From: Escherichia coli
Lineage (GTDB): Bacteria > Pseudomonadota > Gammaproteobacteria > Enterobacterales > Enterobacteriaceae
Assembly (NCBI RefSeq): GCF_013315695.1
Contig: NZ_CP054353.1
Length of the DNA stretch: 64,000 nucleotides
Direction: 5' to 3' (one strand)
Shown one piece after another: positions 1 to 57,925 of this stretch. Every line of letters starts with the position of its first letter. Position 1 is the stretch's first letter. The notes under the pieces were generated by a model. It ran no database searches, was not told the origin of the DNA, and saw only the letters and a program-made list of their open reading frames with translations. The position numbers and the translations under genes were made by a program.

Positions 1-79
1 CACCAGAAAGGCGCTTAAGAAACGGGTGATGCTGCCAACTTACTGATTTAGTGTATGATGGTGTTTTTGAGGTGCTCCA

Positions 80-355
80 GTGGCTTCTGTTTCTATCAGC
101 TGTCCCTCCTGTTCAGCTACTGACGGGGTGGTGCGTAACGGCAAAAGCACCGCCGGACATCAGCGCTATCTCTGCTCTCACTGCCGTAAAACATGGCAAC
201 TGCAGTTCACTTACACCGCTTCTCAACCCGGTACGCACCAGAAAATCATTGATATGGCCATGAATGGCGTTGGATGCCGGGCAACAGCCCGCATTATGGG
301 CGTTGGCCTCAACACGATTTTACGTCACTTAAAAAACTCAGGCCGCAGTCGGTAA
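80..355 (+). CDS. insA: IS1 protein InsA (91 aa)
   Basis: ORF track 91 aa [16 protein letters not shown]...; recognised InsA sequence. Confidence 0.9.
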
Positions 356-777
356 CCTCGCGCATACAGCCGGGCAGTGACGTCATCGTCTGCGCGGAAA
401 TGGACGAACAGTGGGGCTATGTCGGGGCTAAATCGCGCCAGCGCTGGCTGTTTTACGCGTATGACAGGCTCCGGAAGACGGTTGTTGCGCACGTATTCGG
501 TGAACGCACTATGGCGACGCTGGGGCGTCTTATGAGCCTGCTGTCACCCTTTGACGTGGTGATATGGATGACGGATGGCTGGCCGCTGTATGAATCCCGC
601 CTGAAGGGAAAGCTGCACGTAATCAGCAAGCGATATACGCAGCGAATTGAGCGGCATAACCTGAATCTGAGGCAGCACCTGGCACGGCTGGGACGGAAGT
701 CGCTGTCGTTCTCAAAATCGGTGGAGCTGCATGACAAAGTCATCGGGCATTATCTGAACATAAAACACTATCAATAA
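274..777 (+). CDS. insB: IS1 InsB reading frame (167 aa); transposase is made as InsAB by -1 frameshift
   Basis: ORF track 167 aa [16 protein letters not shown]...; overlaps insA 3' end as in IS1. Confidence 0.9.
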
Positions 778-846
778 GTTGGAGTCATTACCGGATTTTC
801 TTAACCCGTACTATACACATAGGGGCAATGATAAAAGGTGGCAAAA

Positions 847-942
847 ATGAATGTTTCCAGTAGAACTGTAGTACTGATAAATGTCTTTGCTGCTGTTGGT
901 TTGTTTACTCTTATCTCTATGAGATTTGGCTGGTTTATTTGA
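847..942 (+). CDS. yncL: Small membrane protein YncL (31 aa)
   Basis: Hand-translated ATG..TGA: MNVSSRTVVLINVFAAVGLFTLISMRFGWFI; position next to patD as in K-12. Confidence 0.6.
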   Translation: MNVSSRTVVLINVFAAVGLFTLISMRFGWFI

Positions 943-1038
943 TGTAGTGATTTTGCACGCAGCACGTACTGTCAGAGAAATCAGTGCTCTGACAGTACGC
1001 AAGATCATCTCATACTCTTACGATCTGCAATATTATCC

Positions 1039-2463
1039 TTAATGTTTAACCATGACGTGGCGGACGACGGTGTAATCCTCCAGCCCATAAAGTGACATAT
1101 CCTTGCCGTAACCAGAAAGTTTCTGCCCACCGTGCGGCATTTCACTTACCAGCATGAAATGGGTATTGACCCAGGTACAACCATATTGCAGCCGCGCGCT
1201 GACGCGATGCGCCCTGCCCACATCTTTCGTCCATACCGAGGATGCAAGTCCGTACTGACTGTCATTCGCCCAGTTCACCACCTGTTCTTCGTTGTCGAAG
1301 AGCGTAACACTCACTACCGGACCAAATACCTCTTTTTGCACGATGGCATCATCCTGTAATGCGCCAGCCAGTAGCGTCGGCGCATAGTAATAGCCATTAC
1401 CCTTGCGCTTTTCACCACCGGTGATCACTTTGATGTGCCCTGTCGCTTTCGCCTCTTCTACCGCCTTGCTGACGCGTTCGAGATGCGCCAGCGAGCTTAA
1501 AGGTCCAAGCTCCGTAGACTCGTCAGCCGGTGCACCCGATTTTAACGTTGCCACCGCAGCACCGAGTTTTTCCACCAGCGTATCGTAAATGCCTTTTTGC
1601 GCGTAGATCCGACAAGCCGCTGTACAATCCTGTCCGGCATTGTAATAGCCAAAAGTACGTACACCTTCGACCACTGCTTCAATATCCGCATCATCAAAAA
1701 CAATCACTGGCGCTTTGCCACCAAGTTCCATATGAGTACGCTTAATCGACGGCGCGGTATGGCTGATGATGTGCTCGCCGGTGGCGATAGAGCCCGTCAG
1801 CGACACCATCCGCACTTTAGGATGTCCGGTCAGCGGATCGCCCACCGTTTTGCCTCTGCCAAACAGTACGTTAATCACGCCTGCCGGGAAGATATCTTTC
1901 GCCAGCTCTGCCAACTTCAACGCGGTCAGCGGGGTAATTTCTGATGGTTTAAGCACTACGCAGTTCCCTGCCGCCAGCGCCGGAGCCAGTTTCCACGCGG
2001 CCATCATCAGCGGATAATTCCACGGTGCGATAGAAGCCACGACCCCCAACGGATCGCGACGGATCATCGAAGTATGACCTTCAAGATATTCACCTGCCGC
2101 CAGACCATTCAGACAGCGCGCCGCACCCGCGAAAAAGCGAAAGACATCGACAATCGCCGGGATTTCATCATTGAACGCACTATGCAGTGGTTTGCCACAA
2201 TTACGGGACTCCAGTTCGGCAAAAACCTGACCATTTTCTTCGATAACATCAGCCAGTTTCAGCAGACATTCCGCACGCACTTTCGGCGTGGTTTGCCCCC
2301 ATTCGGCAAATGCTGCATCTGCCGCGCGCACAGCAGCATCGACCTGCTCTGCGGATGCCTCGGCAATCTCCAGTAAAACGTCCCCCGTTGCCGGATTATA
2401 GACAGGCTGTTTTTCCCCTTCGCCGCTAACCAGTTCTCCGTTAATCAGTAACTTATGTTGCAT
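1039..2463 (-). CDS. patD: Gamma-aminobutyraldehyde dehydrogenase (474 aa)
   Basis: [30 protein letters not shown]...; aldehyde dehydrogenase family, recognised as PatD/YdcW. Confidence 0.9.
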
Positions 2464-2484
2464 AGCATATTCCTGTATCAGTGG

Positions 2485-3279
2485 TTATTGACCATTGTCG
2501 CCTTCGCGGGTTAGCCACCAGGCTCCCAGGATCGGCAAGGTTGTTACCAACATAACCAGCAGTGCCACGACGTTGGTTACCGGTACATCACGTGGTCGCC
2601 CAAGCTGATTGAGTAACCACAACGGTAACGTTCGTTCATGACCTGCCGTAAAAGTCGTAACGATGATTTCATCGAACGACAAAGCAAACGCCAGCATTCC
2701 TCCTGCCAGTAGCGCCGAACTGAGATTCGGCAACACTACGTAGCGGAAGGTTTGCCAGCCATTGGCCCCAAGATCCATTGACGCCTCAACCAGACTCCAC
2801 GAGGTGCGGCGAAAACGGGCGATGACATTGTTAAACACCACCACTACGCAAAAAGTCGCATGGCCGACCACGATGGTGAAAAATCCCGGCTCCAGATTGA
2901 TGGTTTTAAAGGCGGTTAATAGCGCCAGACCAGTGACAATGCCCGGCAGCGCAATGGGCAGCAGCAGTAACAGCGAAATGGCATTTTTGCCGAAAAAGTC
3001 TCGTCGCCACAGCGCAGCAGCTGCCAGCGTCCCTAACACCAGCGCGATTAATGTCGCCAGCGCTGCCACTTTAAGTGACAGTGTCACGGAATCAAGAATA
3101 TCACTACGCTGTGCTGCCACGCTAAACCAGCGCAGCGTCAGGCCTTGCGGTGGAAAACTAAACGCCGCATCTTCAGTGTTAAATGCATAGGCGGCGATAA
3201 TCAGGATAGGAAAATGTAGGAAAACTACGCCGCCCCAGGCCGCCAGTTTGAGGAAAAACGGTGCGCGTTCAGAGTGCAT
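2485..3279 (-). CDS. ydcV: ABC transporter permease (264 aa)
   Basis: Multi-pass membrane ORF in ydcSTUV operon order. Confidence 0.85.
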
Positions 3280-4210
3280 CGAACGCTCCCAGACGTTTCA
3301 CGAACGCCAGGTACAGTGCGATGAGAACAATCGGCACCAGGGTGAATGCCGCCGCCATCGGCATATTGCCAATCGCTCCCTGCTGGGAATAAACCATATT
3401 GCCGATAAAATATCCTGGCGGGCCAACCAGTTGCGGGACGATAAAATCACCCAGTGTGAGTGAGAAGGTAAAGATAGAGCCAGCGGCAATACCCGGGATC
3501 GCCAGCGGCAACACTACATAGCGGAAAGTTTGTCTAGGACGAGCGCCAAGATCAGCCGACGCCTGCAACAATGACGGCGGCAAACGCTCCAGCGCTGCCT
3601 GCACCGGCAGGATCATGAACGGCAGCCAGATATAAAGAAACACGAGAAAGCGTCCCAGTCCTGACGTTGACAGCGTATTGCCGCCCACCGCCGGTAGTGT
3701 GAGAAACGCCGTGAGTAGTGGCTCCAGCCCAAGATGCTGTAAAAACCACTGCGCTACACCGTCTTTAGCCAGCAATAATGTCCAGGCATAGGCTTTAACA
3801 ATGTAGCTTGCCCACATGGGTAACATTACCGCAATGTAGAAGAACGCTTTCATTTTTCCGCTGGTATAGCGCGCCATATACCACGCCATTGGAAAAGCCA
3901 GAATGGCGCTGGCGATAGTGACTGCCACAGCCATAATCAGCGTGCGGAGAATGATGTCGTAATTCGCCGGATTAAACAGCGCACGGATATTGGCCAGCGT
4001 CAGTTCCGGCGTTACCGACATGGTGAAATCGTCAAAGGTATAAAAGCCCTGCCATAACAGCGTTAGCAGCGAGCCAAAATAGACAATGCCAAACCACATT
4101 AGCGGGCCAAGCAGCAGTAAAAACAGCCCCAGCCCCGGATTACGCCAGAAGAAACCGGAAACCTTACCCAGACCTGGACGTGAAGGTGATTGCAATACAT
4201 TCATCGCCAT
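3269..4210 (-). CDS. ydcU: ABC transporter permease (313 aa)
   Basis: Multi-pass membrane ORF; overlaps ydcV start; operon synteny. Confidence 0.85.
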
Positions 4211-5224
4211 TCACCTCTCCTCAACCAGCGGCACCATCACATCACGCGACCAGGAAACCATCACCTGTTGACCGGGCGTGAGCGTATTGGGTAAGTCTTC
4301 GCCCGTTACATTTGCCTGGCTAACCAGCAGTTTTTCTCCACCGCTAAGTTTCAGTTCAAAACGTGTGGCTGCCCCCTGATATTGCACCGCCTGAATCGTG
4401 CCATTAGCCTGCACTTCGCCGGGGATGTTGAAGCGGATATGTTCCGGTCGCAGGGCGAAGCTTCCCGTCATGCCACAAAGTTTGTCTGCCATCAGTGCAT
4501 CAAAAACATTCGATGTCCCGACGAACCCGGCAACAAACGGCGTGCGCGGGCGCATATAGAGATCGCGCGGGGAATCGACCTGCTCAATGCGTCCATTATT
4601 GAAAACCGCCACACGATCGGACATCGATAACGCTTCGCCCTGATCGTGGGTAACGAAGATAAAAGTGATACCGAGAGACTGTTGCAGCTTTTTCAGTTCC
4701 AGTTGCATCTGCTCACGCAATTTGAGATCCAGTGCGCCGAGCGGTTCATCCAACAGCAATACGCGCGGTTCATTCACCAGTGCTCTGGCAATAGCAACCC
4801 GTTGGCGCTGACCACCAGAAAGTTGTGACGGTTTACGTTGCTGTACAAACCCCAACGCCACTTTCTCCAGCGCCTCCTGCGCCATCGCATGCCGCTGCTT
4901 TTTATTCACGCCTTTGACCATCAGCCCATAGGCGACATTGTCAAGAATCGACATATGCGGGAATAGCGCGTAGTCCTGAAAGACAGTATTCACGTCCCGC
5001 TCCCACGGTGGCAGATTGCTGGCGGGTTTACCAAAGATAGAGATAGCCCCGCCGGAAAGTTGTTCGAATCCAGCAATCAGGCGCAGGCAGGTGGTTTTGC
5101 CGGAACCGGACGGCCCCAGCATAGAGAAGAACTCACCATCTTTTATCGCAATACTGACGCCATCTACTGCGCGCACGTCACCGTACAACCGTGAGACGTT
5201 GTCAAACTCCACTGCGTACGTCAT
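4211..5224 (-). CDS. ydcT: ABC transporter ATP-binding protein (337 aa)
   Basis: Walker A GPSGSGKTT, signature LSGGQRQR, Walker B LLLDEP in translation. Confidence 0.9.
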   Translation of the reverse strand: MTYAVEFDNVSRLYGDVRAVDGVSIAIKDGEFFSMLGPSGSGKTTCLRLIAGFEQLSGGAISIFGKPASNLPPWERDVNTVFQDYALFPHMSILDNVAYGLMVKGVNKKQRHAMAQEALEKVALGFVQQRKPSQLSGGQRQRVAIARALVNEPRVLLLDEPLGALDLKLREQMQLELKKLQQSLGITFIFVTHDQGEALSMSDRVAVFNNGRIEQVDSPRDLYMRPRTPFVAGFVGTSNVFDALMADKLCGMTGSFALRPEHIRFNIPGEVQANGTIQAVQYQGAATRFELKLSGGEKLLVSQANVTGEDLPNTLTPGQQVMVSWSRDVMVPLVEER

Positions 5225-5241
5225 AAAACACCCCAGCGAAG

Positions 5242-6387
5242 TTAGCGACCACCCATAATGGCAATGTAATCCTGCGTCCAGCGACTGTAGGGAACAAACT
5301 TGCCCCCTTCTGCTATAGGCGTTTTCCAGAAGGCGATTTTATCGAAATAGTTAAAACCGTTTGTTTCACAACCTTTCTCGCCTAATAACGGACTGGCTTT
5401 ACACCCTTGCGGCACTACTGGTAGCGAGCCAAACCAGGCCGCCACATCGCCCTGCACTTTTGGGGTTAATGACCAGTTCATCCATTTGTAGGCGCAAACC
5501 GGATGTTTCGCTTCGCTATGTAGCATGGTGGTATCAGCCCAACCGGTAACGCCCTCCTTCGGGAAAACGGTAGCGACAGGCTGGCCTTCGGCTTTCAGGG
5601 CGTTGGCCTGATAGGGCCATGCACTGGAAGCAACCACACCCTCGTTTTTGAAATCGCTCATTTGCACGGTAGTGTCATGCCAGTAGCGATGGATCAAACT
5701 ATGTTGATCGCGCAGCACTTTCAGCACCGCCTGGTACTGTTCTTCGGTGAGTTGATACGGATCGCTGATGCCCAACTGTGGCTGAGTGGCTTTAACGAAC
5801 AACGCAGCGTCCGCAATGTAGATAGGGCCATCATAAGCCTGAACGCGGCCTTTATTGCTCTTGCCGTCCGGCAGATTCTGCTCAACAAAAACCACTTGCC
5901 AGCTATTCGGCGGCGTCGGGAAGGTTTTAGTGTTGTACATCAGCAGGTTCGGCCCCCATTGGTAAGGTGTGCCGTAAACTTTGCCGCCAACGTTAAACCA
6001 GTCGCCTTTAACCACGCGCGGATCGAGCGCTTTCCAGTTGGGAATCAATGCGGTATTAATCGGCTGCACGCGTTTGCCCATAATCAGGCGCAGCGAGGCA
6101 TCGCCGGATGCCGTAACCAGATCGTAACCCCCTTTGGTCATCAGACTGACCATTTCATCGGAAGTCGCGGCGGTTTTCACATTCACCGCGCAGCCTGTCT
6201 CTTTTTCGAATTGCGTTACCCAGTCGTATTGTTTATCAGTTTGTCCGCGTTCGATGTATCCCGGCCAGGCGATAATATCCAGTCGCCCTTCCGGTTTATC
6301 TAAATTGGTAGGCGGTTCGGCGGCGTGAGCGGTCATTATTGTCATGGTGAGCGCACACAGGCTGCTGCGGGCAAATATCTTGCTCAT
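5242..6387 (-). CDS. ydcS: Periplasmic substrate-binding protein of polyamine-type ABC transporter (381 aa)
   Basis: Signal-peptide-like N terminus; operon synteny with ydcTUV. Confidence 0.85.
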   Translation of the reverse strand: MSKIFARSSLCALTMTIMTAHAAEPPTNLDKPEGRLDIIAWPGYIERGQTDKQYDWVTQFEKETGCAVNVKTAATSDEMVSLMTKGGYDLVTASGDASLRLIMGKRVQPINTALIPNWKALDPRVVKGDWFNVGGKVYGTPYQWGPNLLMYNTKTFPTPPNSWQVVFVEQNLPDGKSNKGRVQAYDGPIYIADAALFVKATQPQLGISDPYQLTEEQYQAVLKVLRDQHSLIHRYWHDTTVQMSDFKNEGVVASSAWPYQANALKAEGQPVATVFPKEGVTGWADTTMLHSEAKHPVCAYKWMNWSLTPKVQGDVAAWFGSLPVVPQGCKASPLLGEKGCETNGFNYFDKIAFWKTPIAEGGKFVPYSRWTQDYIAIMGGR

Positions 6388-6631
6388 AAGGTCTTACTCC
6401 TGTCGTAATTAATTGTTCAGCCGCCGTGCCGTAAAAATATCTCCTTGTTTAACCATAGACGGCGGCTAGCAGGCACACCTTCGCCCCTGAGAAAATTTAA
6501 TCAGGTTGTGAGCTACCGCGCATTATGCCCTCTGTAAGGTTATCTTCTGGAGTATAGACAAGGAGTTAGGAAATATGACTGCTATTCGAAATTCATATTA
6601 CCCATCCTGAGAGGAATTAAATTAAACGCTA

Positions 6632-8038
6632 TTACAGCCGTTCTTGAATAAGTTTGCCTAATTGTTTTACCGCCTGTTCTTCACGTTCTCCCCACTGCCA
6701 CGCGGTATTAAAACGAAAAAAACGTGACCAGTTTTCACCGGTAGAAAACATTTTACCCGGCGCAATACTGATATGATGCGTCAGTGCCACCAGGCTTAAT
6801 TCTCCTGCATCTAACGGCTCGGGGAGCTCCAGCCAGAGAAAATAACCGCTGTCATTGTGATGAATTTTGACTTCCGCAGGCAGATAACGCAGCAAAGCCT
6901 GCCAGGCGCGTTGTTTACGTTCCGCAAGCTGGCGACGCAGACGACGAAGATGAGCATCGTATCGGCGAGTAGAAAGGTAATCCACCAGCGCAAGCTGCAT
7001 CGGTGAGCTGGTGGAAAGCGTACTCATCAACTGCAAGCGTTGAATTTTACGTGCATGTTTTCCGGCGGCGACCCAACCAATACGAAAACCAGGCACCAGA
7101 CATTTCGAAAACGAAGAGCAATGCAAAACACCATCGTGGTGATCCCACGCTTTCGCAGGCAGCGGTTTTTCCCGTCCAAAATAAAGTTCGCTGTAAACGT
7201 CATCTTCAATCAGCGTTACGTTGTACTGATTGAGCAACGCCACCAGTTGTGCTTTTTTTTGCGGTGTTAAGGTAAATCCGAGTGGATTCTGGCTATTAGT
7301 CATCAGCCAGCACGCTTTCACCGGATACTCCTGCAACGCCAGTTCCAACGCCTGAAGATCTATCCCTTCTTTAACATCCGTCGCCACTGATAACGCTTTC
7401 AGCCGTAGCCGTTCCAGCGCCTGCAACGCGCCATAGAAACAAGGATTCTCTACTATCACCCAATCGCCCGGTTCAGTGACCGCTTGTAAACTGAGGTTTA
7501 ATGCCTCTAACGCCCCGACGGTAATGACAATTTCATCAGGAGAAATAGTGATGCCCTGTAAGGCATAGCGACGAGCAATAGCCTGACGCAGTTCTGCGTT
7601 TCCTGGCGGTAAGTTTTCAATCACGCTCATCGCCGTGGCGGTTTTGCTTACCTGCGCCAGCGAGCGGTTTAGTTGTTGGAGGGGGAAAAGTCGCGGGTCG
7701 GGAAAGGCCGAGGCAAACGGAACGACCGACGGATCGCGACTGGCCTGCAACATATCAAAAATATAAGTGTTGATATCGACTGCTTCATCTCGAGTGACTG
7801 GAATGACTGGCGCTTTCGGCATTTTTATTGCCTGTGGCGCAACGTAATAACCCGACTGCGGTCGTGCGATAATATATCCCTGACTTTCGAGCAACTGATA
7901 GGCATGGCTCACGGTCATAAAGCTCATGCCAGAAAGTGCCACCTGGTCACGCAACGAAGGCAAACGATCTCCGGGTTGCCAGATACCCGACGCAATCTGC
8001 TCGCGTAATTGTTCTGCAAGCTGCTGGTATTTTTTCAT
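6632..8038 (-). CDS. ydcR: MocR/GntR-type regulator with aminotransferase-like domain (468 aa)
   Basis: N-terminal HTH region plus long PLP-fold-like domain; synteny. Confidence 0.85.
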   Translation of the reverse strand: MKKYQQLAEQLREQIASGIWQPGDRLPSLRDQVALSGMSFMTVSHAYQLLESQGYIIARPQSGYYVAPQAIKMPKAPVIPVTRDEAVDINTYIFDMLQASRDPSVVPFASAFPDPRLFPLQQLNRSLAQVSKTATAMSVIENLPPGNAELRQAIARRYALQGITISPDEIVITVGALEALNLSLQAVTEPGDWVIVENPCFYGALQALERLRLKALSVATDVKEGIDLQALELALQEYPVKACWLMTNSQNPLGFTLTPQKKAQLVALLNQYNVTLIEDDVYSELYFGREKPLPAKAWDHHDGVLHCSSFSKCLVPGFRIGWVAAGKHARKIQRLQLMSTLSTSSPMQLALVDYLSTRRYDAHLRRLRRQLAERKQRAWQALLRYLPAEVKIHHNDSGYFLWLELPEPLDAGELSLVALTHHISIAPGKMFSTGENWSRFFRFNTAWQWGEREEQAVKQLGKLIQERL

Positions 8039-8147
8039 TATCGAATCGTTATTATGTGCAGGTGATTCGGCAGTCTATATCAGTTGTTAAAAATGACAAC
8101 TTTTCATTAACTGTTATCAAACCATCACCAGCGATAACTCCTTGCCT

Positions 8148-8183
<36 letters not shown>

Positions 8184-8358
8184 TTACCTCCGTGTGTAAT
8201 GTGCTCGAAAATAGCACTAAATCGCCGCAACGGCAGAATGCTATGCAAAATCAGGAAGGAAGATTCCAGAATTTCTTTGCGCTAATTTGCAAAACTGAAT
8301 AATAACCTCAAGAAACGATCGGCATCATAGCGTCAAAAGGTTAGAAAAAGGTGGCGGG

Positions 8359-8589
8359 ATGTTTTCGAAGGCGTTATCGGTTGTCTTATTAACGTGTGCA
8401 CTGTTCTCAGGACAACTCATGGCAGGGCACAAAGGACATGAATTTATGTGGGTAAAGAATGTGGATCATCAGCTGCGTCATGAAGCGGACAGCGATGAAT
8501 TGCGTGCTGTGGCGGAAGAGTCGGCGGAAGGTTTGCGCGAGCATTTTTACTGGCAAAAATCGCGCAAACCAGAAGCGGGACAGCGTTGA
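8359..8589 (+). CDS. yncJ: Secreted small protein YncJ (76 aa)
   Basis: ORF MFSKALSVVLLTCALFSGQLMAGHKGHEF...; signal peptide; synteny. Confidence 0.7.
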   Translation: MFSKALSVVLLTCALFSGQLMAGHKGHEFMWVKNVDHQLRHEADSDELRAVAEESAEGLREHFYWQKSRKPEAGQR

Positions 8590-20604: not shown

Positions 20605-21528
20605 ATGGAAAAAAATAGTCTGTTTAGTCAGCGCATCCGTTTGCGCCACCTTCATACATTCGTAGCTGTCGCACAACAAGGAACTTTGGGGCGCGCGGCT
20701 GAAACCCTTAATTTGAGTCAACCTGCGCTCTCTAAGACATTGAATGAACTGGAGCAGCTGACGGGCGCTCGCTTGTTTGAGCGTGGTCGTCAGGGGGCGC
20801 AACTTACCTTACCCGGCGAACAATTTTTAACGCATGCAGTCAGAGTTCTTGACGCCATCAACACTGCTGGACAGTCGCTTCATCGTAAAGAAGGTCTTAA
20901 TAATGATATCGTCAGGGTTGGTGCACTACCTACTGCGGCACTGGGGATATTACCTTCGGTTATAGGTCAGTTTCATCAGCAACAAAAAGAGACGACCTTG
21001 CAAGTTGCGACAATGAGTAACCCTATGATTCTGGCGGGTTTAAAAACCGGGGAAATCGATATCGGCATTGGTCGGATGTCAGATCCTGAACTGATGACCG
21101 GGCTTAATTACGAACTGCTGTTTCTTGAATCGCTGAAGCTGGTTGTCCGCCCCAATCATCCGCTACTTCAGGAGAACGTAACGCTAAGCCGGGTGCTGGA
21201 ATGGCCGGTCGTTGTATCACCAGAAGGCACTGCGCCACGCCAGCATTCAGATGCATTAGTGCAGAGCCAGGGATGTAAAATTCCTTCGGGTTGTATCGAA
21301 ACGCTGTCTGCTTCGCTATCTCGTCAACTTACGGTTGAATACGACTACGTGTGGTTTGTCCCTTCTGGCGCTGTAAAAGACGACCTGCGTCATGCCACGC
21401 TGGTGGCCCTGCCTGTTCCGGGACATGGTGCAGGCGAACCGATTGGAATACTGACCCGCGTAGATGCGACGTTCTCTTCTGGTTGCCAGTTGATGATTAA
21501 CGCTATTCGAAAATCAATGCCGTTCTGA
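20605..21528 (+). CDS. ydcI: LysR-family transcriptional regulator (307 aa)
   Basis: HTH LRHLHTFVAVAQQGTLGRAAETLNLSQPALSKTL; start set at MEKNSLF inside longer track ORF. Confidence 0.8.
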   Translation: MEKNSLFSQRIRLRHLHTFVAVAQQGTLGRAAETLNLSQPALSKTLNELEQLTGARLFERGRQGAQLTLPGEQFLTHAVRVLDAINTAGQSLHRKEGLNNDIVRVGALPTAALGILPSVIGQFHQQQKETTLQVATMSNPMILAGLKTGEIDIGIGRMSDPELMTGLNYELLFLESLKLVVRPNHPLLQENVTLSRVLEWPVVVSPEGTAPRQHSDALVQSQGCKIPSGCIETLSASLSRQLTVEYDYVWFVPSGAVKDDLRHATLVALPVPGHGAGEPIGILTRVDATFSSGCQLMINAIRKSMPF

Positions 21529-21566
21529 AAGGTGAAGGGATCTGTCGATCCCTTCCTTGAACATTT

Positions 21567-23207
21567 TCACACCGTAGCGAAACTAACTGGTTCACCCGCT
21601 CCGCGAGGTTCTGCCGACACAGTATGTTTGTTCAGACGGAATACGTCCACCGCCTCAGTTAATCGTGCCGCCTGTTCTTCAAGGGACACCGCCGCCGCTG
21701 AGGCCTCTTCTACCAGAGAAGCATTCTGTTGCGTCACCTTATCCATTTCAGAAATCGCCTGGCTAACCTGCGTTATGCCTCTACTTTGTTCATCCGAGGC
21801 GGCGGCGATTTCCTGCATGATATGTGTGACACTCGCGACGGCATCAACAATAGTGCTCATGGTTTTCCCTGCCGTTGCCACCTCATCCGACCCCAGGTCA
21901 ATTAACCTGACTGATTCACTGATCAAGCCTTCAATCTCTTTCGCCGCCTGAGCGCTGCGGCTTGCGAGTGTCCGTACTTCGCTGGCGACAACGGCAAATC
22001 CACGTCCTTGCTCACCCGCTCGCGCGGCTTCAACGGCAGCATTCAGTGCCAGAATATTCGTCTGGAAAGCAATACTGTTGATGACGGCGGTGATCTCGGA
22101 AATTTTCTTCGAACTCGTGGAGATAGCGCCCATCGTTTTTACTACACCGGAAACCGTCTGCCCGCCATCGCTGGCTTTAATAGAAGCCTCCTGCGCCAGT
22201 TTGCTGGCATGATGCGCGTTATCTGCATTCTGTTTCACCGTCGCAGTGAGTTGCTCCATGCTGGCGGCAGTTTGTTCAATTGCCGCCGCTTGTTCTTCGG
22301 TGCGAGATGAAAGGTCCGCATTGCCAGCGGAAATTTCGCTGGTGCCACGATAAATCTCTTCCGCGCCCTGTCGAACGGTCCCTACAGTCATCCCCAGTGA
22401 ATGCTGCATTTGCTGTAAATGACGACTTAAGCGACCGATTTCATTACGACCCGCCGGTTCATCATTCATCGTCAGATCGCCACTGGCGATTTTTTCAATC
22501 CGTTGTGCGGCATGTTGCAGTGGACGAATGACGATCCGACGTAGCACTATAAATGTTATCAGCGTCATGACCAGGGCAAGCACAAACGCGCCAATCATGA
22601 ACATCCCACCCAGGCGGGTGCGCTGATGGGCCAGTTCCGCCAGTTGGTTGGCTCTGGTGCTACGTATCTTAACGGCTTTGCTCAAAATATCGGTATAAGC
22701 ATTATCCAGCGGTCGGATCTGCTCACTTTCATGATTGATAATCGCTTCAAACATGCCATTTTTGGCATATTTCAACATCGGTTGCATACCCGTGATATAA
22801 GCCTGGAAGCGTTGATTTAATTCAGTGTCGAGGGCTTCATCAGCAGGTGTTTTCACCGACCGATTCTGATAAGCACGATAACCTTGCTGCGACTGTTTAA
22901 TCTCCGATTCGGCTTGCGCAATATTTCGCTTCATTGCTTCCATTTCCGCAATACGACTCGCTGCCCCGGCCTGAATCATATTGATCCGGGCTGAACGCAA
23001 AAAATCTGAACTGTTCGCTAACCCGGTCCGAATCTCAATCTCCGCAGTAACATCACGCTGATCGCGATCGGCCTGCCAGAGGAAATAGCCAGCCAGAGCA
23101 GAACTTAATGCGAATAGAACTAAGATACCGCCAAGAATGCAGGCAAATAACGGAACCAGCCTGATGTGATGCAAAAAACCTAATCGCTGTGAGGGAGTTG
23201 TATTCAT
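21567..23207 (-). CDS. trg: Methyl-accepting chemotaxis protein III (546 aa)
   Basis: MCP signalling domain with methylation-site sequence context; recognised Trg. Confidence 0.9.
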
Positions 23208-23479
23208 TACCGTTGTCTCTCGTCCAGGTTTACTCCTGATAGAAAGTCATCGGCACTTGACGGTAATTACTTATGACCAAAAACCTCTTTGCGTCACATT
23301 TTTACAACAATTATGGCAGAGAAGAATAATGCCATTGGAATGAAGAGAGTAACGAACGGCTAAACCGAATGACGAAAAATTCTGGAAAACAGCACGCAAT
23401 TTCGTCAAGTGATTATTTTCGTCCCTAAGGAAACCTCATAGGATGCCTGCGGGTGCCTGAGACTTTCTGTTTTCAGGCT

Positions 23480-23538
23480 AACCGGGAATCAGAAAGACGA
23501 AGGCCCCGACCGATATTTCTATCAACCGAGGCCAACGA

Positions 23539-23545
<7 letters not shown>
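23480..23545 (-). ncRNA. sokB: Putative SokB antisense RNA (position approximate)
   Basis: Inferred from hok/sok organisation: antisense to the mokB leader; not resolved directly in sequence. Confidence 0.3.
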
Positions 23546-23746
<201 letters not shown>

Positions 23747-23817
23747 GGGCAAGCGCGGGGATTTTCCCCGCGCATCTGACTAGCGGATTCATTTTCTCAT
23801 GGCACCCCTTTTACACT

Positions 23818-23991
23818 TCAGTTAGTACATGTTTTTTTCGATGCACTAATAGAACCATCATTACAGACAAATTTGCCGCCTGCCGTACAGTGTGAGATTC
23901 CCCCTTTCGAACCAGAACAGGGTTTGCGCCCGGCATCGGCATAAAAGGAAACAAGCGTTCCCATAACCAAGATAAGTGCCAGTTTTTTCAT
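23818..23991 (-). CDS. ydcA: Small secreted cysteine-rich protein YdcA (57 aa)
   Basis: Hand-translated MKKLALILVMGTLVSFYADAGRKPCSGSKGGISHCTAGGKFVCNDGSISASKKTCTN. Confidence 0.7.
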   Translation of the reverse strand: MKKLALILVMGTLVSFYADAGRKPCSGSKGGISHCTAGGKFVCNDGSISASKKTCTN

Positions 23992-24161
23992 ATAACCTCC
24001 ATGGTTTATCGAATCTTATGTTCGATTTGAACGTTATACGCTGGTTTATTTTGATACCGTTGATGAGATCAAAGATCGGGTGAATTGATTAAAGATAAGC
24101 CAGATGGACGTATAGACAAGGATTATGGTTTTATTTGTCATACAAATAAATATAATAGGCG

Positions 24162-24225
24162 CTTCCGATGTAGGCCCGTATTCTTCGCCTGTACCACGGG
24201 TCGGTTTTAGTACAGGCGTTTTCTT
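24162..24225 (+). ncRNA. rydC: RydC small RNA (pseudoknot sRNA)
   Basis: CTTCCGATGTAGGCCCGTATTCTTCGCCTGTACCACGGGTCGGTTTTAGTACAGGCGTTTTCTT between ydcA and cybB, matching my recollection of RydC. Confidence 0.6.
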
Positions 24226-24235
24226 TAAATATCCT

Positions 24236-24766
24236 TCAGGAACGTTTACGCGGCATCATGCGTAGAAGTGTGTTGTCCTTCCAGAAATAGTGGTGTGCCA
24301 GTGCAGCCGCAGCGTGCAACCCGATGACAAAATATCCCAGATTCGCCAGCGTTTCATGCCACGACTTTAAGCTATCAACCCGTTCGAAATTGGCCTCTGA
24401 AGCGTAAGGCATCGTCATACCAAACGCAAACCACGGGTTGCCCCGGTTATACATCATCACCAAACCAATCACCGGCAGCGCAATAAACAGGAGATAAATC
24501 ACCAAATGGCCCAAATGCGCCAGTCCCGTCATCATCGGTTTTGGCTTAGGTATAATCGGCGGGGTTGGGTATTTCAGCCTTAACAAAAGACGAACCACCA
24601 TCAGTACGAGAATTGAGATGCCACAGGAAACATGAATCATGTTGATGAGGGGCCGATCGCTACGTGGGAAGAAACCACGAAACTCCATTGCGCAATACGC
24701 TGCGATAACCAGCAAAAAGACCAGCCAGTGAATGCTGATTTGTAACCTTGAGTATTTATTTTCCAT
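24236..24766 (-). CDS. cybB: Cytochrome b561 (176 aa)
   Basis: Start set at MENKYSRLQISIHWLVF; membrane protein. Confidence 0.9.
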   Translation of the reverse strand: MENKYSRLQISIHWLVFLLVIAAYCAMEFRGFFPRSDRPLINMIHVSCGISILVLMVVRLLLRLKYPTPPIIPKPKPMMTGLAHLGHLVIYLLFIALPVIGLVMMYNRGNPWFAFGMTMPYASEANFERVDSLKSWHETLANLGYFVIGLHAAAALAHHYFWKDNTLLRMMPRKRS

Positions 24767-38597: not shown

Positions 38598-38652
38598 GGT
38601 GATGCTGCCAACTTACTGATTTAGTGTATGATGGTGTTTTTGAGGTGCTCCA

Positions 38653-38928
38653 GTGGCTTCTGTTTCTATCAGCTGTCCCTCCTGTTCAGCTACTGACGGG
38701 GTGGTGCGTAACGGCAAAAGCACCGCCGGACATCAGCGCTATCTCTGCTCTCACTGCCGTAAAACATGGCAACTGCAGTTCACTTACACCGCTTCTCAAC
38801 CCGGTACGCACCAGAAAATCATTGATATGGCCATGAATGGCGTTGGATGCCGGGCAACAGCCCGCATTATGGGCGTTGGCCTCAACACGATTTTACGTCA
38901 CTTAAAAAACTCAGGCCGCAGTCGGTAA
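38653..38928 (+). CDS. insA: IS1 InsA
   Basis: Translation identical to copy 1 InsA. Confidence 0.9.
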
Positions 38929-39350
38929 CCTCGCGCATACAGCCGGGCAGTGACGTCATCGTCTGCGCGGAAATGGACGAACAGTGGGGCTATGTCGGGG
39001 CTAAATCGCGCCAGCGCTGGCTGTTTTACGCGTATGACAGGCTCCGGAAGACGGTTGTTGCGCACGTATTCGGTGAACGCACTATGGCGACGCTGGGGCG
39101 TCTTATGAGCCTGCTGTCACCCTTTGACGTGGTGATATGGATGACGGATGGCTGGCCGCTGTATGAATCCCGCCTGAAGGGAAAGCTGCACGTAATCAGC
39201 AAGCGATATACGCAGCGAATTGAGCGGCATAACCTGAATCTGAGGCAGCACCTGGCACGGCTGGGACGGAAGTCGCTGTCGTTCTCAAAATCGGTGGAGC
39301 TGCATGACAAAGTCATCGGGCATTATCTGAACATAAAACACTATCAATAA
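38847..39350 (+). CDS. insB: IS1 InsB reading frame
   Basis: Translation identical to copy 1 InsB. Confidence 0.9.
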
Positions 39351-39505
39351 GTTGGAGTCATTACCACTTGAACCGATAATAAACGCAGAAATTCTATTTT
39401 GTAGCTCATTGTTGCCTCCTGTGTGAATTGTTCGAATCTACCAGGCTGCGATGAAAGAAGTCGTGTAGTAGAGAGCTATACCCGCAACAAGCGGGGCAGA
39501 CGTTC

Positions 39506-48448: not shown

Positions 48449-48476
48449 ATGCTCTGGATAAGGATCATCCAATTCT

Positions 48477-48571
48477 AAAAAAAAGCCCGGACGACGGTTC
48501 GGGCTTGTCTCATTATTTGTTGGATAAACAGTAACAAGGGTCCAACAGAAAATAATCTTTGTGACAATAAA
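48477..48571 (-). ncRNA. micC: MicC small RNA (OmpC-repressing), with its intrinsic terminator
   Basis: Minus-strand GTTATATGCCTTTATTGTCACA... 5' seed, ending in hairpin GCCCGAACCGTCGTCCGGGC plus T-run; between ydbK and ompN as in K-12. Confidence 0.6.
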
Positions 48572-48838
48572 GGCATATAACCCGCGAAGAATAACGCATC
48601 ACTATTTAAATGTATAATTTTTATTTTGTATATGTCGCCAACAATATATTCACCAGACTTATTATCATTTCAGAAGAATTATTTGATTAAGGTTTTACTT
48701 AAGGCGTAACAAATAATATTTATCGTCTAACTGAACTTCTCCTTTAGGATGCTTTCACTCCCCGAAATGGGGATAAAAGGCAAGGTGATGCTGCCAACTT
48801 ACTGATTTAGTGTATGATGGTGTTTTTGAGGTGCTCCA

Positions 48839-49114
48839 GTGGCTTCTGTTTCTATCAGCTGTCCCTCCTGTTCAGCTACTGACGGGGTGGTGCGTAACGG
48901 CAAAAGCACCGCCGGACATCAGCGCTATCTCTGCTCTCACTGCCGTAAAACATGGCAACTGCAGTTCACTTACACCGCTTCTCAACCCGGTACGCACCAG
49001 AAAATCATTGATATGGCCATGAATGGCGTTGGATGCCGGGCAACAGCCCGCATTATGGGCGTTGGCCTCAACACGATTTTACGTCACTTAAAAAACTCAG
49101 GCCGCAGTCGGTAA
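48839..49114 (+). CDS. insA: IS1 InsA
   Basis: Translation identical to copy 1 InsA. Confidence 0.9.
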
Positions 49115-49536
49115 CCTCGCGCATACAGCCGGGCAGTGACGTCATCGTCTGCGCGGAAATGGACGAACAGTGGGGCTATGTCGGGGCTAAATCGCGCCAG
49201 CGCTGGCTGTTTTACGCGTATGACAGGCTCCGGAAGACGGTTGTTGCGCACGTATTCGGTGAACGCACTATGGCGACGCTGGGGCGTCTTATGAGCCTGC
49301 TGTCACCCTTTGACGTGGTGATATGGATGACGGATGGCTGGCCGCTGTATGAATCCCGCCTGAAGGGAAAGCTGCACGTAATCAGCAAGCGATATACGCA
49401 GCGAATTGAGCGGCATAACCTGAATCTGAGGCAGCACCTGGCACGGCTGGGACGGAAGTCGCTGTCGTTCTCAAAATCGGTGGAGCTGCATGACAAAGTC
49501 ATCGGGCATTATCTGAACATAAAACACTATCAATAA
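49033..49536 (+). CDS. insB: IS1 InsB reading frame
   Basis: Translation identical to copy 1 InsB. Confidence 0.9.
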
Positions 49537-49551
49537 GTTGGAGTCATTACC

Positions 49552-50357
49552 TCGATTACGGACGTAATTATGGCGTAATGTACGACATCGAAGGCTGGAC
49601 CGATATGCTGCCTGAATTTGGCGGTGACTCTTATACCAATGCAGACAACTTTATGACTGGTCGTGCCAACGGCGTCGCGACTTATCGTAATACTGATTTC
49701 TTCGGTCTGGTAAATGGTCTGAACTTCGCAGTGCAGTATCAAGGTAACAACGAAGGTGCCAGTAATGGTCAGGAAGGCACCAACAACGGACGTGATGTTC
49801 GCCATGAAAACGGTGACGGCTGGGGTCTTTCCACAACATATGATTTAGGCATGGGCTTTAGCGCTGGTGCGGCATACACCTCATCTGACCGCACCAATGA
49901 CCAGGTTAACCATACTGCGGCAGGTGGTGATAAAGCAGACGCGTGGACTGCTGGGCTAAAATACGATGCTAACAATATTTACCTGGCAACCATGTATTCA
50001 GAAACACGTAACATGACCCCGTTTGGCGACAGCGATTATGCAGTTGCGAACAAAACCCAGAACTTTGAAGTTACTGCACAGTACCAGTTTGATTTTGGTC
50101 TGCGTCCGGCAGTCTCTTTCCTGATGTCTAAAGGCCGTGACCTTCACGCTGCCGGTGGTGCAGACAACCCGGCAGGTGTTGATGATAAAGATCTGGTTAA
50201 ATACGCCGATGTTGGCGCGACTTACTATTTCAACAAAAATATGTCCACCTACGTTGACTATAAAATCAACCTGTTGGATGAAGATGACAGCTTCTACGCT
50301 GCCAACGGCATCTCTACCGATGATATTGTCGCTTTAGGTCTGGTTTATCAGTTCTAA
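49552..50357 (+). pseudogene. ompN: 3' portion of outer membrane porin gene truncated by IS1; ompN by synteny
   Basis: Frame open from the IS1 junction (..[15 protein letters not shown]..) to a porin-type C terminus LGLVYQF; N-terminal ~110 codons and promoter missing. Confidence 0.75.
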
Positions 50358-51516: not shown

Positions 51517-52431
51517 ATGTACTCAATAAAAAAAGTAACCATGCTCTTGGGGTGCCTCGCCCTCACCTGCTCGATCGCATTTCAGGCGAGTGCAACTGAA
51601 AAATTCAAGGTCATTACAACATTTACCATCATCGCAGATATGGCCAAAAACGTGGCTGGAGATGCTGCAGAAGTCTCATCCATAACCAAGCCCGGTGCAG
51701 AAATTCATGAGTATCAGCCTACCCCTGGCGATATTAAACGTGCGCAGGAGGCACAACTGATTCTCGCCAATGGTATGAATCTGGAATTGTGGTTCCAACG
51801 CTTTTACCAGCATCTTAATGGGGTTCCAGAAGTAATTGTCTCTTCGGGTGTGACGCCAGTAGGGATCACTGAAGGCCCCTATGAGGGCAAACCTAACCCC
51901 CATGCCTGGATGTCGCCAGATAATGCTCTGATTTACGTCGATAATATTCGTGATGCGTTGATAAAATACGATCCGGCAAATGCACAAACCTACCAACGTA
52001 ATGCCGATACTTATAAAGCCAAGATTACCCAAACCCTTGCCCCCCTGCGTAAGCAGATTGCTGAACTCCCTGAGAATCAGCGATGGATGGTCACCAGTGA
52101 AGGGGCTTTTTCTTATCTCGCACGCGATTTGGGGCTAAAAGAGCTTTATCTGTGGCCGATTAATGCCGATCAACAAGGCACGCCGCAGCAGGTACGTAAG
52201 GTTGTTGATATGGTGAAGAAAAATCATATCCCGGCAGTCTTTAGCGAGAGTACGATTTCCGATAAACCAGCGCGTCAGGTTGCGCGTGAAACCGGCGCGC
52301 ACTACGGCGGTGTACTCTATGTCGATTCCCTGAGCACAGAAAACGGCCCGGTACCTACGTATATCGACCTTCTGAAGGTTACTACCAGTACGCTGGTACA
52401 GGGAATTAAAGCCGGGAAAAGGGAGAAATAA
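51517..52431 (+). CDS. sitA: Periplasmic Mn/Fe-binding protein of Sit ABC transporter (304 aa)
   Basis: Signal peptide plus metal-binding lipoprotein-9-like sequence; first gene of a four-gene transporter operon. Confidence 0.85.
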
Positions 52432-53258
52432 TGATGCAATCTGCGGGCATTGTCGTTAATGATGTTACTGTCACCTGGCGTAACGGGCACACAGCACTGC
52501 GCGATGCATCCTTCACAGTACCAAGTGGATCTATTGCCGCTCTGGTTGGGGTAAACGGTTCCGGAAAATCGACGTTGTTTAAAGCGATTATGGGATTTGT
52601 GCGTCTGACCAGCGGAAAGATATCTGTTCTGGGTATTCCCACGCGACAGGCGCTACAGAAAAACCTGGTTGCCTACGTCCCTCAGTCAGAAGAGGTTGAC
52701 TGGTCATTTCCTGTACTAGTGGAAGATGTGGTGATGATGGGCCGCTATGGGCACATGGGTATGTTGCGTATAGCCAAAAAGAGGGATCGTCAGATTGTCA
52801 CCGATGCGCTGGAACGTGTCGATATGGTGGATTTTCGCCATCGACAAATCGGCGAGCTTTCCGGTGGACAAAAGAAACGCGTCTTTCTGGCGAGAGCGAT
52901 TGCACAGCAGGGTGATGTGATCCTGCTGGATGAACCTTTTACCGGCGTTGATGTGAAAACCGAAGCGAAAATCATCAGCCTGTTGAGGGAGTTACGCGCG
53001 GAAGGCAAGACGATGCTTGTCTCAACGCACAATCTCGGCTCAGTCACGACATTTTGCGATTATACGGTCATGGTCAAAGGCACCGTCCTGGCAAGCGGGC
53101 CGACAGACACCACTTTTACAGCCGAGAACCTGGAGCTGGCTTTTAGCGGCGTACTGCGCCATGTCACACTTAACGCCTCGGAAGAAAGCATTATTACTGA
53201 CGATGAACACCCTTTTGTGGCACATCGACCGTCAGCGGTGCAGAGGGAAGCAAGATGA
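52431..53258 (+). CDS. sitB: Sit transporter ATP-binding protein (275 aa)
   Basis: Walker [10 protein letters not shown], signature LSGGQKKR, Walker B ILLDEP. Confidence 0.85.
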
Positions 53259-54112
53259 ACGTGCTACTGGAACCCTTCAGCTATGAATATATGCTCAATG
53301 CGATGTGGGTCTCGGCGATGGTCGGCGGTCTCTGCGCTTTCCTGTCATGCTATCTGATGCTAAAAGGCTGGTCGCTGATTGGCGATGCGCTGTCGCACTC
53401 TATTGTCCCGGGTGTTGCGGGGGCATATATGCTGGGGCTTCCGTTTTCTCTGGGAGCCTTCTTTTCCGGCGGACTGGCAGCGGGCAGCATGCTGTTTCTT
53501 AACCAACGCACTCGCTTAAAAGAAGATGCCATCATCGGCCTGATCTTCTCCTCCTTTTTTGGCCTGGGGCTGTTTATGGTGTCATTGAACCCGACATCCG
53601 TGAACATTCAGACCATCGTCCTAGGCAATATTCTGGCAATCGATCCGGCGGATATCCTGCAACTCACTATCATTGGCATTCTCTCGATCATCGTGCTTTT
53701 TTTCAAATGGAAAGATCTTATGGTGACCTTTTTCGACGAGAATCACGCCCGTGCTATTGGATTGCATCCGGGCAGATTAAAAATCCTCTTCTTCACCCTG
53801 CTGTCGGTTTCGACCGTTGCGGCGCTGCAAACGGTTGGTGCCTTTCTGGTGATCTGTCTGGTGGTGACTCCCGGTGCAACAGCATGGTTGTTAACCGATC
53901 GTTTTCCCCGCCTGCTCATAATTGCTGTAACTATTGGCAGTGTAACCAGTTTCCTCGGCGCGTGGGTCAGTTACTTTCTGGACGGCGCGACAGGTGGAAT
54001 CATCGTGGTGGCGCAGACACTGCTGTTTCTTTTAGCATTTGTATTTGCGCCCACCCATGGGCTTTTGGCAAATCGTCGGCGTGCGCATAAAGCGCTGGAG
54101 GATCGCTCATGA
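53255..54112 (+). CDS. sitC: Sit transporter permease (285 aa)
   Basis: Multi-pass membrane ORF overlapping sitB end. Confidence 0.85.
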
Positions 54113-54966
54113 TGGCATTATTACTGGAGCCACTGCAGTTCACCTTTATGAGTCACGCACTGCTGATTTCACTGGTAGTTTCCATACCCTGTGCGCTGCT
54201 GTCGGTCTTTCTGGTCCTGAAAGGTTGGGCACTGATGGGTGACGCGATGAGTCATGCGGTTTTTCCTGGCATCGTGCTTGCCTGGATTCTGGGGTTACCT
54301 CTGGCTACAGGGGCATTTATCGCCGGAGTATTCTGCGCGGTGGCGACGGGATACCTGAAAGACAACAGCCGAATCAAGCAAGATACAGTGATGGGGATTG
54401 TTTTTTCTGGCATGTTTGCCGCAGGTCTGATCTTGTATATTGCAGTCAAACCAGACATACATCTTGACCATATTCTTTTCGGCGACATGCTCGGGGTAAC
54501 CATCGGCGATATAATCCAGACGATGATTATTGCCGGGCTGGTTACACTTGTTATTAGCGTAAAATGGCGGGATTTTTTGCTGTTCAGCTTTGATTATCAA
54601 CAGGCGCAGGTAAGCGGTTTGCATACGCGATGGCTGCATTATGGGCTGCTGTGCATGGTTTCCCTGACCATTGTGGCGACGCTGAAAGCAGTAGGTATCA
54701 TTCTCTCCATTTCTCTGCTCATTGCGCCTGGCGCCATTGCGGTACTCCTGACACAACGCTTTCATATTGCACTCCTACTGGCGACTGGCATATCGGTAAT
54801 AGTCTCAATGACTGGTGTTTGGCTGTCCTTTTTTATCGACAGCGCACCCGCTCCGACGATTGTCGTCTTATTCGCGGTTGTGTTCATCATGACGTTTACC
54901 GTTATCAGTTTCAACGCACGCACAAAGGGAAACGCTCATAGACAGGATCTGTTATCCCCCAATTAG
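54109..54966 (+). CDS. sitD: Sit transporter permease (285 aa)
   Basis: Multi-pass membrane ORF overlapping sitC end. Confidence 0.85.
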   Translation: MMALLLEPLQFTFMSHALLISLVVSIPCALLSVFLVLKGWALMGDAMSHAVFPGIVLAWILGLPLATGAFIAGVFCAVATGYLKDNSRIKQDTVMGIVFSGMFAAGLILYIAVKPDIHLDHILFGDMLGVTIGDIIQTMIIAGLVTLVISVKWRDFLLFSFDYQQAQVSGLHTRWLHYGLLCMVSLTIVATLKAVGIILSISLLIAPGAIAVLLTQRFHIALLLATGISVIVSMTGVWLSFFIDSAPAPTIVVLFAVVFIMTFTVISFNARTKGNAHRQDLLSPN

Positions 54967-55417
54967 CACAACATCCGAGGGCAGCATTGTCCGCTAGTAC
55001 ACTGCAGTCCAGAAAGTCATGGGCGGACGTTGGGAGGAGGCGCTAATCCTTTCATACAAAAAATATGTAAAATCAATAACGGCTGTAAATCATTCAATAC
55101 TCGCACTATCGGAAGTTCACCAGCCAGCCGCAGCACGTTCTTGCATACGACGTGTCTGCGGTTTCAACTTCACCAGTCCACCAATCACGATGGACAGTGC
55201 CAAGACAGCACTAGCAAAAACAGGAAATTAGCAGTCTCAGCAGAACACCGACCAGACGGTGAAGAAACAAAAAAGGATACGCAAAGGGGCCGCAGTTCCC
55301 GATTGATAAAAAAGCCAGCTTATGCGCTTTTTTTTCATGTATTATTAAGTATTGGTTAGCGTCTTTTTAATCAGAACTTTAAAGACAAGCCATTTGTAAG
55401 AAAACCGACAGATTCGG

Positions 55418-57087: not shown

Positions 57088-57148
57088 TAAAACGAGGCGC
57101 TCGGCCCCTTAATATTATTTAGACGCAAGCGTCGGTAATGACTCCAAC

Positions 57149-57652
57149 TTATTGATAGTGTTTTATGTTCAGATAATGCCCGATGACTTTGTCATGCAGC
57201 TCCACCGATTTTGAGAACGACAGCGACTTCCGTCCCAGCCGTGCCAGGTGCTGCCTCAGATTCAGGTTATGCCGCTCAATTCGCTGCGTATATCGCTTGC
57301 TGATTACGTGCAGCTTTCCCTTCAGGCGGGATTCATACAGCGGCCAGCCATCCGTCATCCATATCACCACGTCAAAGGGTGACAGCAGGCTCATAAGACG
57401 CCCCAGCGTCGCCATAGTGCGTTCACCGAATACGTGCGCAACAACCGTCTTCCGGAGCCTGTCATACGCGTAAAACAGCCAGCGCTGGCGCGATTTAGCC
57501 CCGACATAGCCCCACTGTTCGTCCATTTCCGCGCAGACGATGACGTCACTGCCCGGCTGTATGCGCGAGGTTACCGACTGCGGCCTGAGTTTTTTAAGTG
57601 ACGTAAAATCGTGTTGAGGCCAACGCCCATAATGCGGGCTGTTGCCCGGCAT
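57149..57652 (-). CDS. insB: IS1 InsB reading frame
   Basis: Translation identical to copy 1 InsB. Confidence 0.9.
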
Positions 57653-57846
57653 CCAACGCCATTCATGGCCATATCAATGATTTTCTGGTGCGTACCGGGT
57701 TGAGAAGCGGTGTAAGTGAACTGCAGTTGCCATGTTTTACGGCAGTGAGAGCAGAGATAGCGCTGATGTCCGGCGGTGCTTTTGCCGTTACGCACCACCC
57801 CGTCAGTAGCTGAACAGGAGGGACAGCTGATAGAAACAGAAGCCAC
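57571..57846 (-). CDS. insA: IS1 InsA
   Basis: Translation identical to copy 1 InsA. Confidence 0.9.
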
Positions 57847-57925
57847 TGGAGCACCTCAAAAACACCATCATACACTAAATCAGTAAGTTGGCAGCATCAC
57901 CCCCGGCGTTAAGGGGAGAGATAAG

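Follow-up and report, generated by a model that had tools for sequence, protein, structure and literature searches.

The IS1 element that abuts yncL at the start of the window (the whole stretch of Escherichia coli DNA that was analysed, 64,000 nucleotides) marks the site of a small IS1-associated deletion. Compared with K-12, 236 bp of contiguous DNA are missing exactly from the IS end, and it is because of this deletion that the element has no target-site duplication (TSD). The history that we favour, with a probability of roughly 0.7, is an insertion of IS1 in the ortT-yncL region, followed by an adjacent deletion that took away the 236 bp and, with them, one of the two 9-bp repeats. As a kind of event, this is a known, standard IS1-associated deletion, and the locus is already annotated accordingly by PGAP in two public genomes. 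The locus has been neither swapped nor rearranged, and the K-12 neighbours except ortT are intact. The features discussed below are collected in Table 1.

Table 1. Position of the features in the window, with strand and remarks
Feature	Position	Strand	Remarks
ortT remnant, part	1..24	-	24 nt encoding OrtT R33-V40; exact match to K-12 ortT nt 97-120
IS1 copy 1	25-792	+	Complete, 768 bp, IS1A type
IS1 left inverted repeat	25-47		GGTGATGCTGCCAACTTACTGAT
insA	80-355		IS1 copy 1
insB' frame	274-777		IS1 copy 1
A6C frameshift motif	329-337		TTAAAAAAC; IS1 copy 1
IS1 right inverted repeat	770-792		GGTAATGACTCCAACTTATTGAT; terminal repeat is the reverse complement of ATCAATAAGTTGGAGTCATTACC
Retained yncL upstream sequence	793..846	+	54 bp, identical to K-12 and MS 21-1
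Candidate sigmaS-type -10	811-817	+	C-TATACA; conserved across Escherichia and Citrobacter
yncL ribosome-binding site	835-841	+	AAGGTGG
yncL	847-942	+	Intact; 31-aa stress-response membrane protein
Inverted repeat, perfect 13 bp	965..999	.	CGTACTGTCAGAG / CTCTGACAGTACG, 9-nt loop; between convergent yncL and patD
patD	1039..2463	-	Gamma-aminobutyraldehyde dehydrogenase; convergent with yncL; right-side K-12 synteny anchor
IS1 copy 2	38598-39365		No TSD; common to AF3 and MSB1_4I
MicC	48469-48584	-	Intact
IS1 copy 3	48784-49551		
ompN	49552-50357		Without its 5' end; a 259-aa ORF remains
sitABCD	~51800-55400		Iron/manganese transporter genes beside uspF; AF3 locus 21128-24577
IS1 copy 4	57134-57901	-	Inside the Rac-like prophage region, adjoining ydaF and sieB
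RalA sRNA	63647-63825		Rac-like prophage

The element itself has the length and terminal repeats of the IS1 family, the two inverted repeats matching at 18 of 23 positions (read and counted from the sequence), and its InsA and InsB' frames are joined by a -1 frameshift at the A6C motif. Three Pfam domains were recovered: Zn_ribbon_InsA (PF03811, 1.3e-21) and HTH_Tnp_IS1 (PF12759, 4.7e-31), which are the zinc ribbon and helix-turn-helix of InsA, and DDE_Tnp_IS1 (PF03400, 2.3e-78) in InsB'. The window holds three other IS1 copies, to each of which this first copy is identical at 768 of 768 positions, and the terminal 23-mer accordingly occurs four times, compared with 0.00 expected by chance.

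The copy is bordered by ...GCTTAAGAAACG on the left and by GGATTTTCTTAACC... on the right. No direct repeat of 8 to 14 bp abuts its ends (...TAAGAAACG / ...TTAAGAAACG versus GGATTTTCT...), and the 8-9 bp TSD that belongs to the IS1 family is absent. The initial annotation had reported the missing duplication correctly, and the right end of IS1 at 792 and the yncL start codon at 847 were also as it gave them; the gap between the two, put at about 55 bp, is indeed short and measures exactly 54 bp (793-846).

We then located the missing DNA by alignment to the K-12 reference locus (NC_000913.3:1514500-1521500). In the coordinates of that locus, the left flank stops at 2986 and the right flank resumes at 2749, so that positions 2750-2985 are absent (236 bp, genome 1517249-1517484). 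They comprise 140 bp of the 194-bp yncL-ortT spacer and nucleotides 1-96 of ortT (codons 1-32). The nearest relative without this IS1 is MS 21-1, in which 3 kb of flanking sequence is 100% identical; it holds exactly those 236 bp, with 3 SNPs relative to K-12, and an intact 57-aa OrtT. In the alignments to both K-12 and MS 21-1 the deletion junctions are sharp at the two IS1 termini. An Rfam scan of the K-12 yncL-ortT region (E<=1) detected no known sRNA within the deleted DNA.

It had been proposed that IS1 adjoins yncL on the side where K-12 has ortT (ydcX) and that something was lost there, and both points are borne out. The sequence upstream of IS1 had been described as lying out of view. 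This is partly true, yet the first 24 nucleotides of the window already belong to ortT, whose 3' remnant amounts to 78 nt in all and extends upstream beyond the window start. In the genomes AF3 and MSB1_4I, the remnant beyond IS1 is followed by intact ydcY, ydcZ, mnaT, curA and mcbR in the K-12 order, and a longer AF3 stretch keeps this order through pqqU and yncE. The possibility of a replacement or rearrangement of the ydcX-ydcZ-mnaT side, implied by the initial annotation, is therefore not borne out: every gene except the truncated ortT is intact, and only 236 bp are gone. An inversion or translocation through recombination with some distant IS1 was rejected on two grounds: the two flanks of copy 1 lie 236 bp from each other and in line with the K-12 sequence, and neither of them matches any flank of copies 2 to 4. 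On the other side of yncL, the hairpin region at 965..999 is unaffected by the IS1 event and is conserved across other Escherichia species.

A set of 5426 complete E. coli genomes was searched for the same arrangement. Window positions 1-2500 were covered end to end, at 99.9% identity, in AF3 (a UK blood culture, NZ_OZ547117.1) and MSB1_4I (an Australian rectal swab, NZ_LR898874.1). When each IS1 junction was queried separately, the same 2 of the 5426 genomes were found, always with the two junctions together; none of the 5426 had one junction without the other. The strain from which the window comes (the window strain) is a third member of this lineage: it differs from AF3 by 3 substitutions across window positions 1-8500, and it has a 362-bp deletion at ompN that is absent from AF3 and MSB1_4I. 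IS1 matches are numerous in the lineage, at least 39-40 per genome. Thirty-five other genomes, retrieved with a query coverage of at least 80%, were rejected as instances of the same event, as the junctions are not shared. In SLK172, the one inspected among them, a CatB-like acetyltransferase gene located between yncL and patD contains an IS1 that is unrelated; most of the other rows among the matches listed carry the same CatB-like annotation, and cM2a shows none.

In AF3 and MSB1_4I, PGAP annotates copy 1 as an IS1A family transposase with programmed frameshift. At window positions 124 and 286, both of these genomes have T, while the window strain has C and A respectively, which makes its copy 1 identical to copies 2 to 4. 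Copy 1 of AF3 and MSB1_4I is thus 2 nt off the other copies of that lineage. This suggests either IS1 gene conversion in the window strain, or a copy 1 that was originally a slightly different variant.

IS copies are a common source of misassembly, and one could suppose that the IS1 was misplaced, or that a TSD once present had decayed through point mutation. We regard such an artefact as practically negligible: three independent sequences (the window, AF3 and MSB1_4I) share both junctions base for base, and 236 bp are gone, not merely a few mutated bases.

IS1-mediated adjacent deletions were reportedly described by Reif and Saedler in 1975. Section 5.2.1 of the review PMC9330008, citing Turlan & Chandler 1995, states that IS1 makes intramolecular replicative deletions, and that the remaining element is without direct repeats because one repeat goes with the deleted DNA. 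Each of the 14 TSD-less IS-associated deletions from the E. coli long-term evolution experiment consisted of an insertion and then an adjacent deletion (PMC11708052). For copy 1, the first step would be a transposition of IS1 into the ortT-yncL region, in the ancestor of a narrow lineage to which AF3, MSB1_4I and the window strain belong. In the second step, an adjacent deletion mediated by IS1 (an intramolecular transposition from one IS end into nearby DNA) would have taken out the 236 bp along with one of the two 9-bp target repeats, and the end state would be a single intact IS1 with unrelated flanks. The expected hallmark, an intact IS with contiguous ancestral DNA missing exactly from its end, is what is found at copy 1. 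Only at copy 3 is there a documented precursor that has kept both its TSD and the DNA.

Copy 3 constitutes a clean natural before-and-after pair for an IS1 adjacent deletion. In AF3 and MSB1_4I, it lies 26 bp upstream of the ompN ATG and is flanked by a perfect 9-bp TSD, AAAAGGCAA, with ompN intact; 9-bp duplications are therefore indeed made by IS1 in this lineage. The window strain has the same left junction, but the right TSD and 353 bp of ancestral DNA are gone, so that the ompN promoter-proximal DNA and about 118 codons are lost. The copy 3-ompN junction of the window strain was found in one piece in 0 of the 5426 genomes. For copy 1, an intermediate (IS1 with a TSD at either junction and the 236 bp present) was seen in none of the 5426 complete genomes, and it is hence by analogy with copy 3 that we infer the order of events, insertion first and deletion second. 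[quoted passage not shown]

Two other routes to the same structure were considered. IS1 might have inserted twice, independently and in the same orientation, once within ortT and once 54 bp upstream of yncL, after which homologous recombination between the two copies would have removed the 236 bp and one IS1. The product, with its left flank from one site and its right flank from the other, would be indistinguishable from that of an adjacent deletion; the lineage is rich in IS1, and IS-IS recombination is a recognised cause of missing TSDs (PMC11708052). We nevertheless consider this route unlikely, since it needs two same-orientation hits within 236 bp, none of the 5426 genomes shows either junction alone, and in copy 3, the only resolved case of the lineage, a single IS1 with its TSD went on to an adjacent deletion without a second copy. 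Alternatively, IS1 might have entered a DNA break or deletion intermediate, the insertion and the 236-bp loss being simultaneous and the TSD never made. Such a one-step course has been proposed for TSD-less IS5 and IS481 events (PMC11708052), and it would agree with the lack of an intermediate for copy 1 among the 5426 genomes. It is very improbable here, as it has not been demonstrated for IS1, every case of the long-term evolution experiment was resolved into two steps (PMC11708052), and copy 3 in the same lineage is demonstrably two-step.

Insertion followed by adjacent deletion thus being the preferred history of copy 1, the remaining copies can be placed beside it. Copy 2 replaces 9,236 bp relative to MS 21-1, namely the bigA/ydbA pseudogene, pdxI and the ~1.9 kb 5' part of ydbD. 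Taken together, copies 1 to 3 document an ongoing, IS1-driven gene erosion (ortT, ompN, bigA-pdxI-ydbD) in a rare IS1-rich lineage. These three copies are in direct orientation and 100% identical, and they bracket segments of ~37.8 kb and ~9.4 kb that homologous recombination might delete or duplicate. Copy 4 has no TSD, and its flanks match those of no other copy.

A few observations concern the surroundings of copies 3 and 4. In several unrelated E. coli strains, IS1 is also found beside ompN, as two-piece matches with differing gaps (for example NZ_CM184335.1 2556222-2556959). This suggests that IS1 inserts repeatedly in the nifJ-ompN spacer or in the 5' region of ompN. The Rac-like prophage (kilR, recET, ralR) lies, like the sitABCD genes, beside uspF; in MS 21-1, ttcA directly adjoins uspF, and neither sit genes nor a Rac-like prophage intervene.

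The consequences differ for the two genes at the copy 1 junction. Lost from ortT are its start codon, residues 1-32 and the whole upstream spacer and promoter region. The remnant follows a stop codon located in the IS1 terminus and has no start codon of its own, and AF3 and MSB1_4I carry the annotation 'incomplete, missing N-terminus'. The 25 residues left (33-57) cover positions 31-55 of the 55 positions of the Pfam profile Toxin_GhoT_OrtT (PF10753), to which the full-length OrtT of MS 21-1 scores 96.9 bits; the remnant does not have the features of an OrtT/GhoT toxin (about 57 aa, a start codon and both hydrophobic segments). OrtT, a toxin that damages the membrane, is induced under stringent and heat stress, and its predicted promoters (sigmaE, sigmaD, sigmaH) are all situated in the yncL-ortT spacer; it lowers growth in the presence of serine hydroxamate, trimethoprim or sulfamethoxazole (PMC4344625). 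We can safely predict that OrtT is non-functional in the IS1 allele. The neighbouring ydcY retains a sigma70-like promoter of its own, TTGACG-16-TATCAT, which a consensus scan placed beyond the deleted stretch.

The yncL product, in contrast to OrtT, is retained in full. It scores 72.5 bits against the NCBIfam equivalog NF000537 (cut-off 35), and its gene is convergent to patD, as expected of yncL. The allele, INVFAAV, corresponds to F13V relative to K-12, and the protein (WP_001303494.1) is annotated in AF3, MS 21-1 and SLK172. A degenerate pattern of the yncL C-terminus, searched in 100,044 species genomes, was found in Escherichia species only, the other hits falling in unrelated non-enterobacterial taxa and being taken as chance matches.

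To delimit the yncL promoter, upstream regions were aligned from E. albertii, E. whittamii, two further Escherichia species, divergent E. coli and one Citrobacter locus, the last of these reached via PatD as an anchor. A footprint emerged that is nearly invariant from Citrobacter to Escherichia: TTGCGGAT, 13-14 variable nucleotides, and ACTATACACA(A/T)AGGGGCA. Its -35 and -10 boxes are conserved, the spacer between them differs in sequence and not in length, and the far spacer is poorly conserved. The footprint fits a candidate promoter in which 17 bp separate the -35, TTGCGG, from a -10 of the sigmaS style (TATACA, preceded by C at -13). A scan for consensus sigma70 promoters found none for yncL or ortT in K-12. 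Independent published data agree with the sigmaS-style candidate: the Salmonella yncL (STnc1110) is strongly sigmaS-dependent (PMC5437024), SELEX with the RpoS holoenzyme gave a peak within the yncL/ydcX spacer of E. coli (PMC5493296), and YncL is induced in minimal medium, heat shock and stationary phase (PMC12542507).

In the Citrobacter locus, yncL and ortT are divergent as in E. coli, and 193 bp lie between them. No yncL was detectable near patD in the Salmonella and Enterobacter loci. The Salmonella enterica patD locus (5758-6206) and a second one (5116-6234, where PatD is identical to an Enterobacter kobei protein) each have two tandem or nearby ortT paralogues (PF10753).

The IS1 junction falls inside the conserved -35, between TTGC and GG. 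Only GG is retained, and the sequence becomes TTACCGG; all DNA upstream of the junction is lost, including a second conserved element, TAnnAT. The conserved initiation region CATAGGGGCA lies within the retained 793..846. Since the -10, the start region, the ribosome-binding site and the ORF are kept, and the -35 and the DNA upstream of it are lost, yncL transcription in the IS1 allele is probably weakened or deregulated, and not abolished. It may nonetheless be that yncL relies chiefly on the deleted TAnnAT as its -10, in which case its transcription would be silenced completely.

Could IS1 itself act as a mobile promoter, an adaptive insertion whose outward or hybrid promoter now drives yncL? 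IS1 has an outward -35 in its inverted repeat and forms hybrid promoters (PMC9330008 Table 1), one of which was described at afaA in ST131 (PMC8764528). Here, IS1 and yncL are co-oriented and 54 bp apart, and the IS1 terminus offers TTACCG, which stands at a distance of 18 bp from the yncL -10 and matches at 3 of 6 positions, as many as the native TTGCGG. This substitute hexamer, however, is without the G of TTG and has an 18-bp spacing. The hexamer TTGGAG of the right inverted repeat ends 8 bp from the IS end, and is 24-27 bp from the -10, so that no canonical IS1 hybrid promoter is formed: the flank hexamers at 16-18 bp (TTAACC, TAACCC, AACCCG) are not -10-like, and the outward -35 is therefore not 16-18 bp from a -10 in the flank. 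A consensus sigma70 scan across the IS1 junction yielded no promoter-like site. In ST131, moreover, an IS1 upstream of osmB lowered transcription and one upstream of ugd left it unchanged, because only well-spaced IS1 insertions activate (PMC8764528). The idea of an outward promoter serving yncL is thus weak, and an adaptive promoter insertion appears improbable; with the outward -35 out of register, a reduced or altered yncL expression would be expected.

We conclude that a small IS1-associated deletion accounts for the missing TSD, and that the ydcX-mnaT side has undergone no large rearrangement or foreign replacement. The significance of this is small beyond annotation. The locus does provide two naturally occurring variants, an ortT null allele and an altered yncL promoter, which may be compared with the isogenic-like MS 21-1. 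A more ambitious reading would be that the junction rewires two stress-induced membrane-depolarising peptides, OrtT being deleted and YncL being silenced or uncoupled from sigmaS/heat-shock control, and that the allele became fixed in a human-associated lineage (blood and rectal isolates) through changed stress tolerance or persistence; we consider this distinctly doubtful.

Several known systems can be compared with this locus. In structure, copy 1 is no different from the known IS1 (IS1A) of Escherichia coli and Shigella: it has the same length, repeats, insA and insB' with the A6C -1 frameshift, and Pfam domains, but is without the usual 9-bp target duplication. As in the IS1 hybrid promoters (Prentki et al. 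1986, as cited in PMC9330008; afaA, PMC8764528), the IS1 end lies immediately upstream of a -10 and is co-oriented with the gene. Unlike in those cases, the outward -35 is out of register, and the junction destroys the conserved, putative native -35 of yncL instead of offering a better one. The IS150 'IS-del' events (PMC11708052) are also TSD-less IS elements beside a deletion, explained as an insertion and then an adjacent deletion, which was sometimes extended later. They concern the IS3/IS150 family, and a laboratory time series proves their order, whereas at copy 1 the order is inferred. A further counterpart is formed by the IS1 adjacent deletions. The copy 1 event differs from these precedents in being small (236 bp), in occurring in natural clinical isolates, and in having its pre-deletion intermediate seen only for copy 3. 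It resembles them in the following features: the intact IS is kept, the deletion starts exactly at its terminus, one repeat is lost, and the flanks are collinear.
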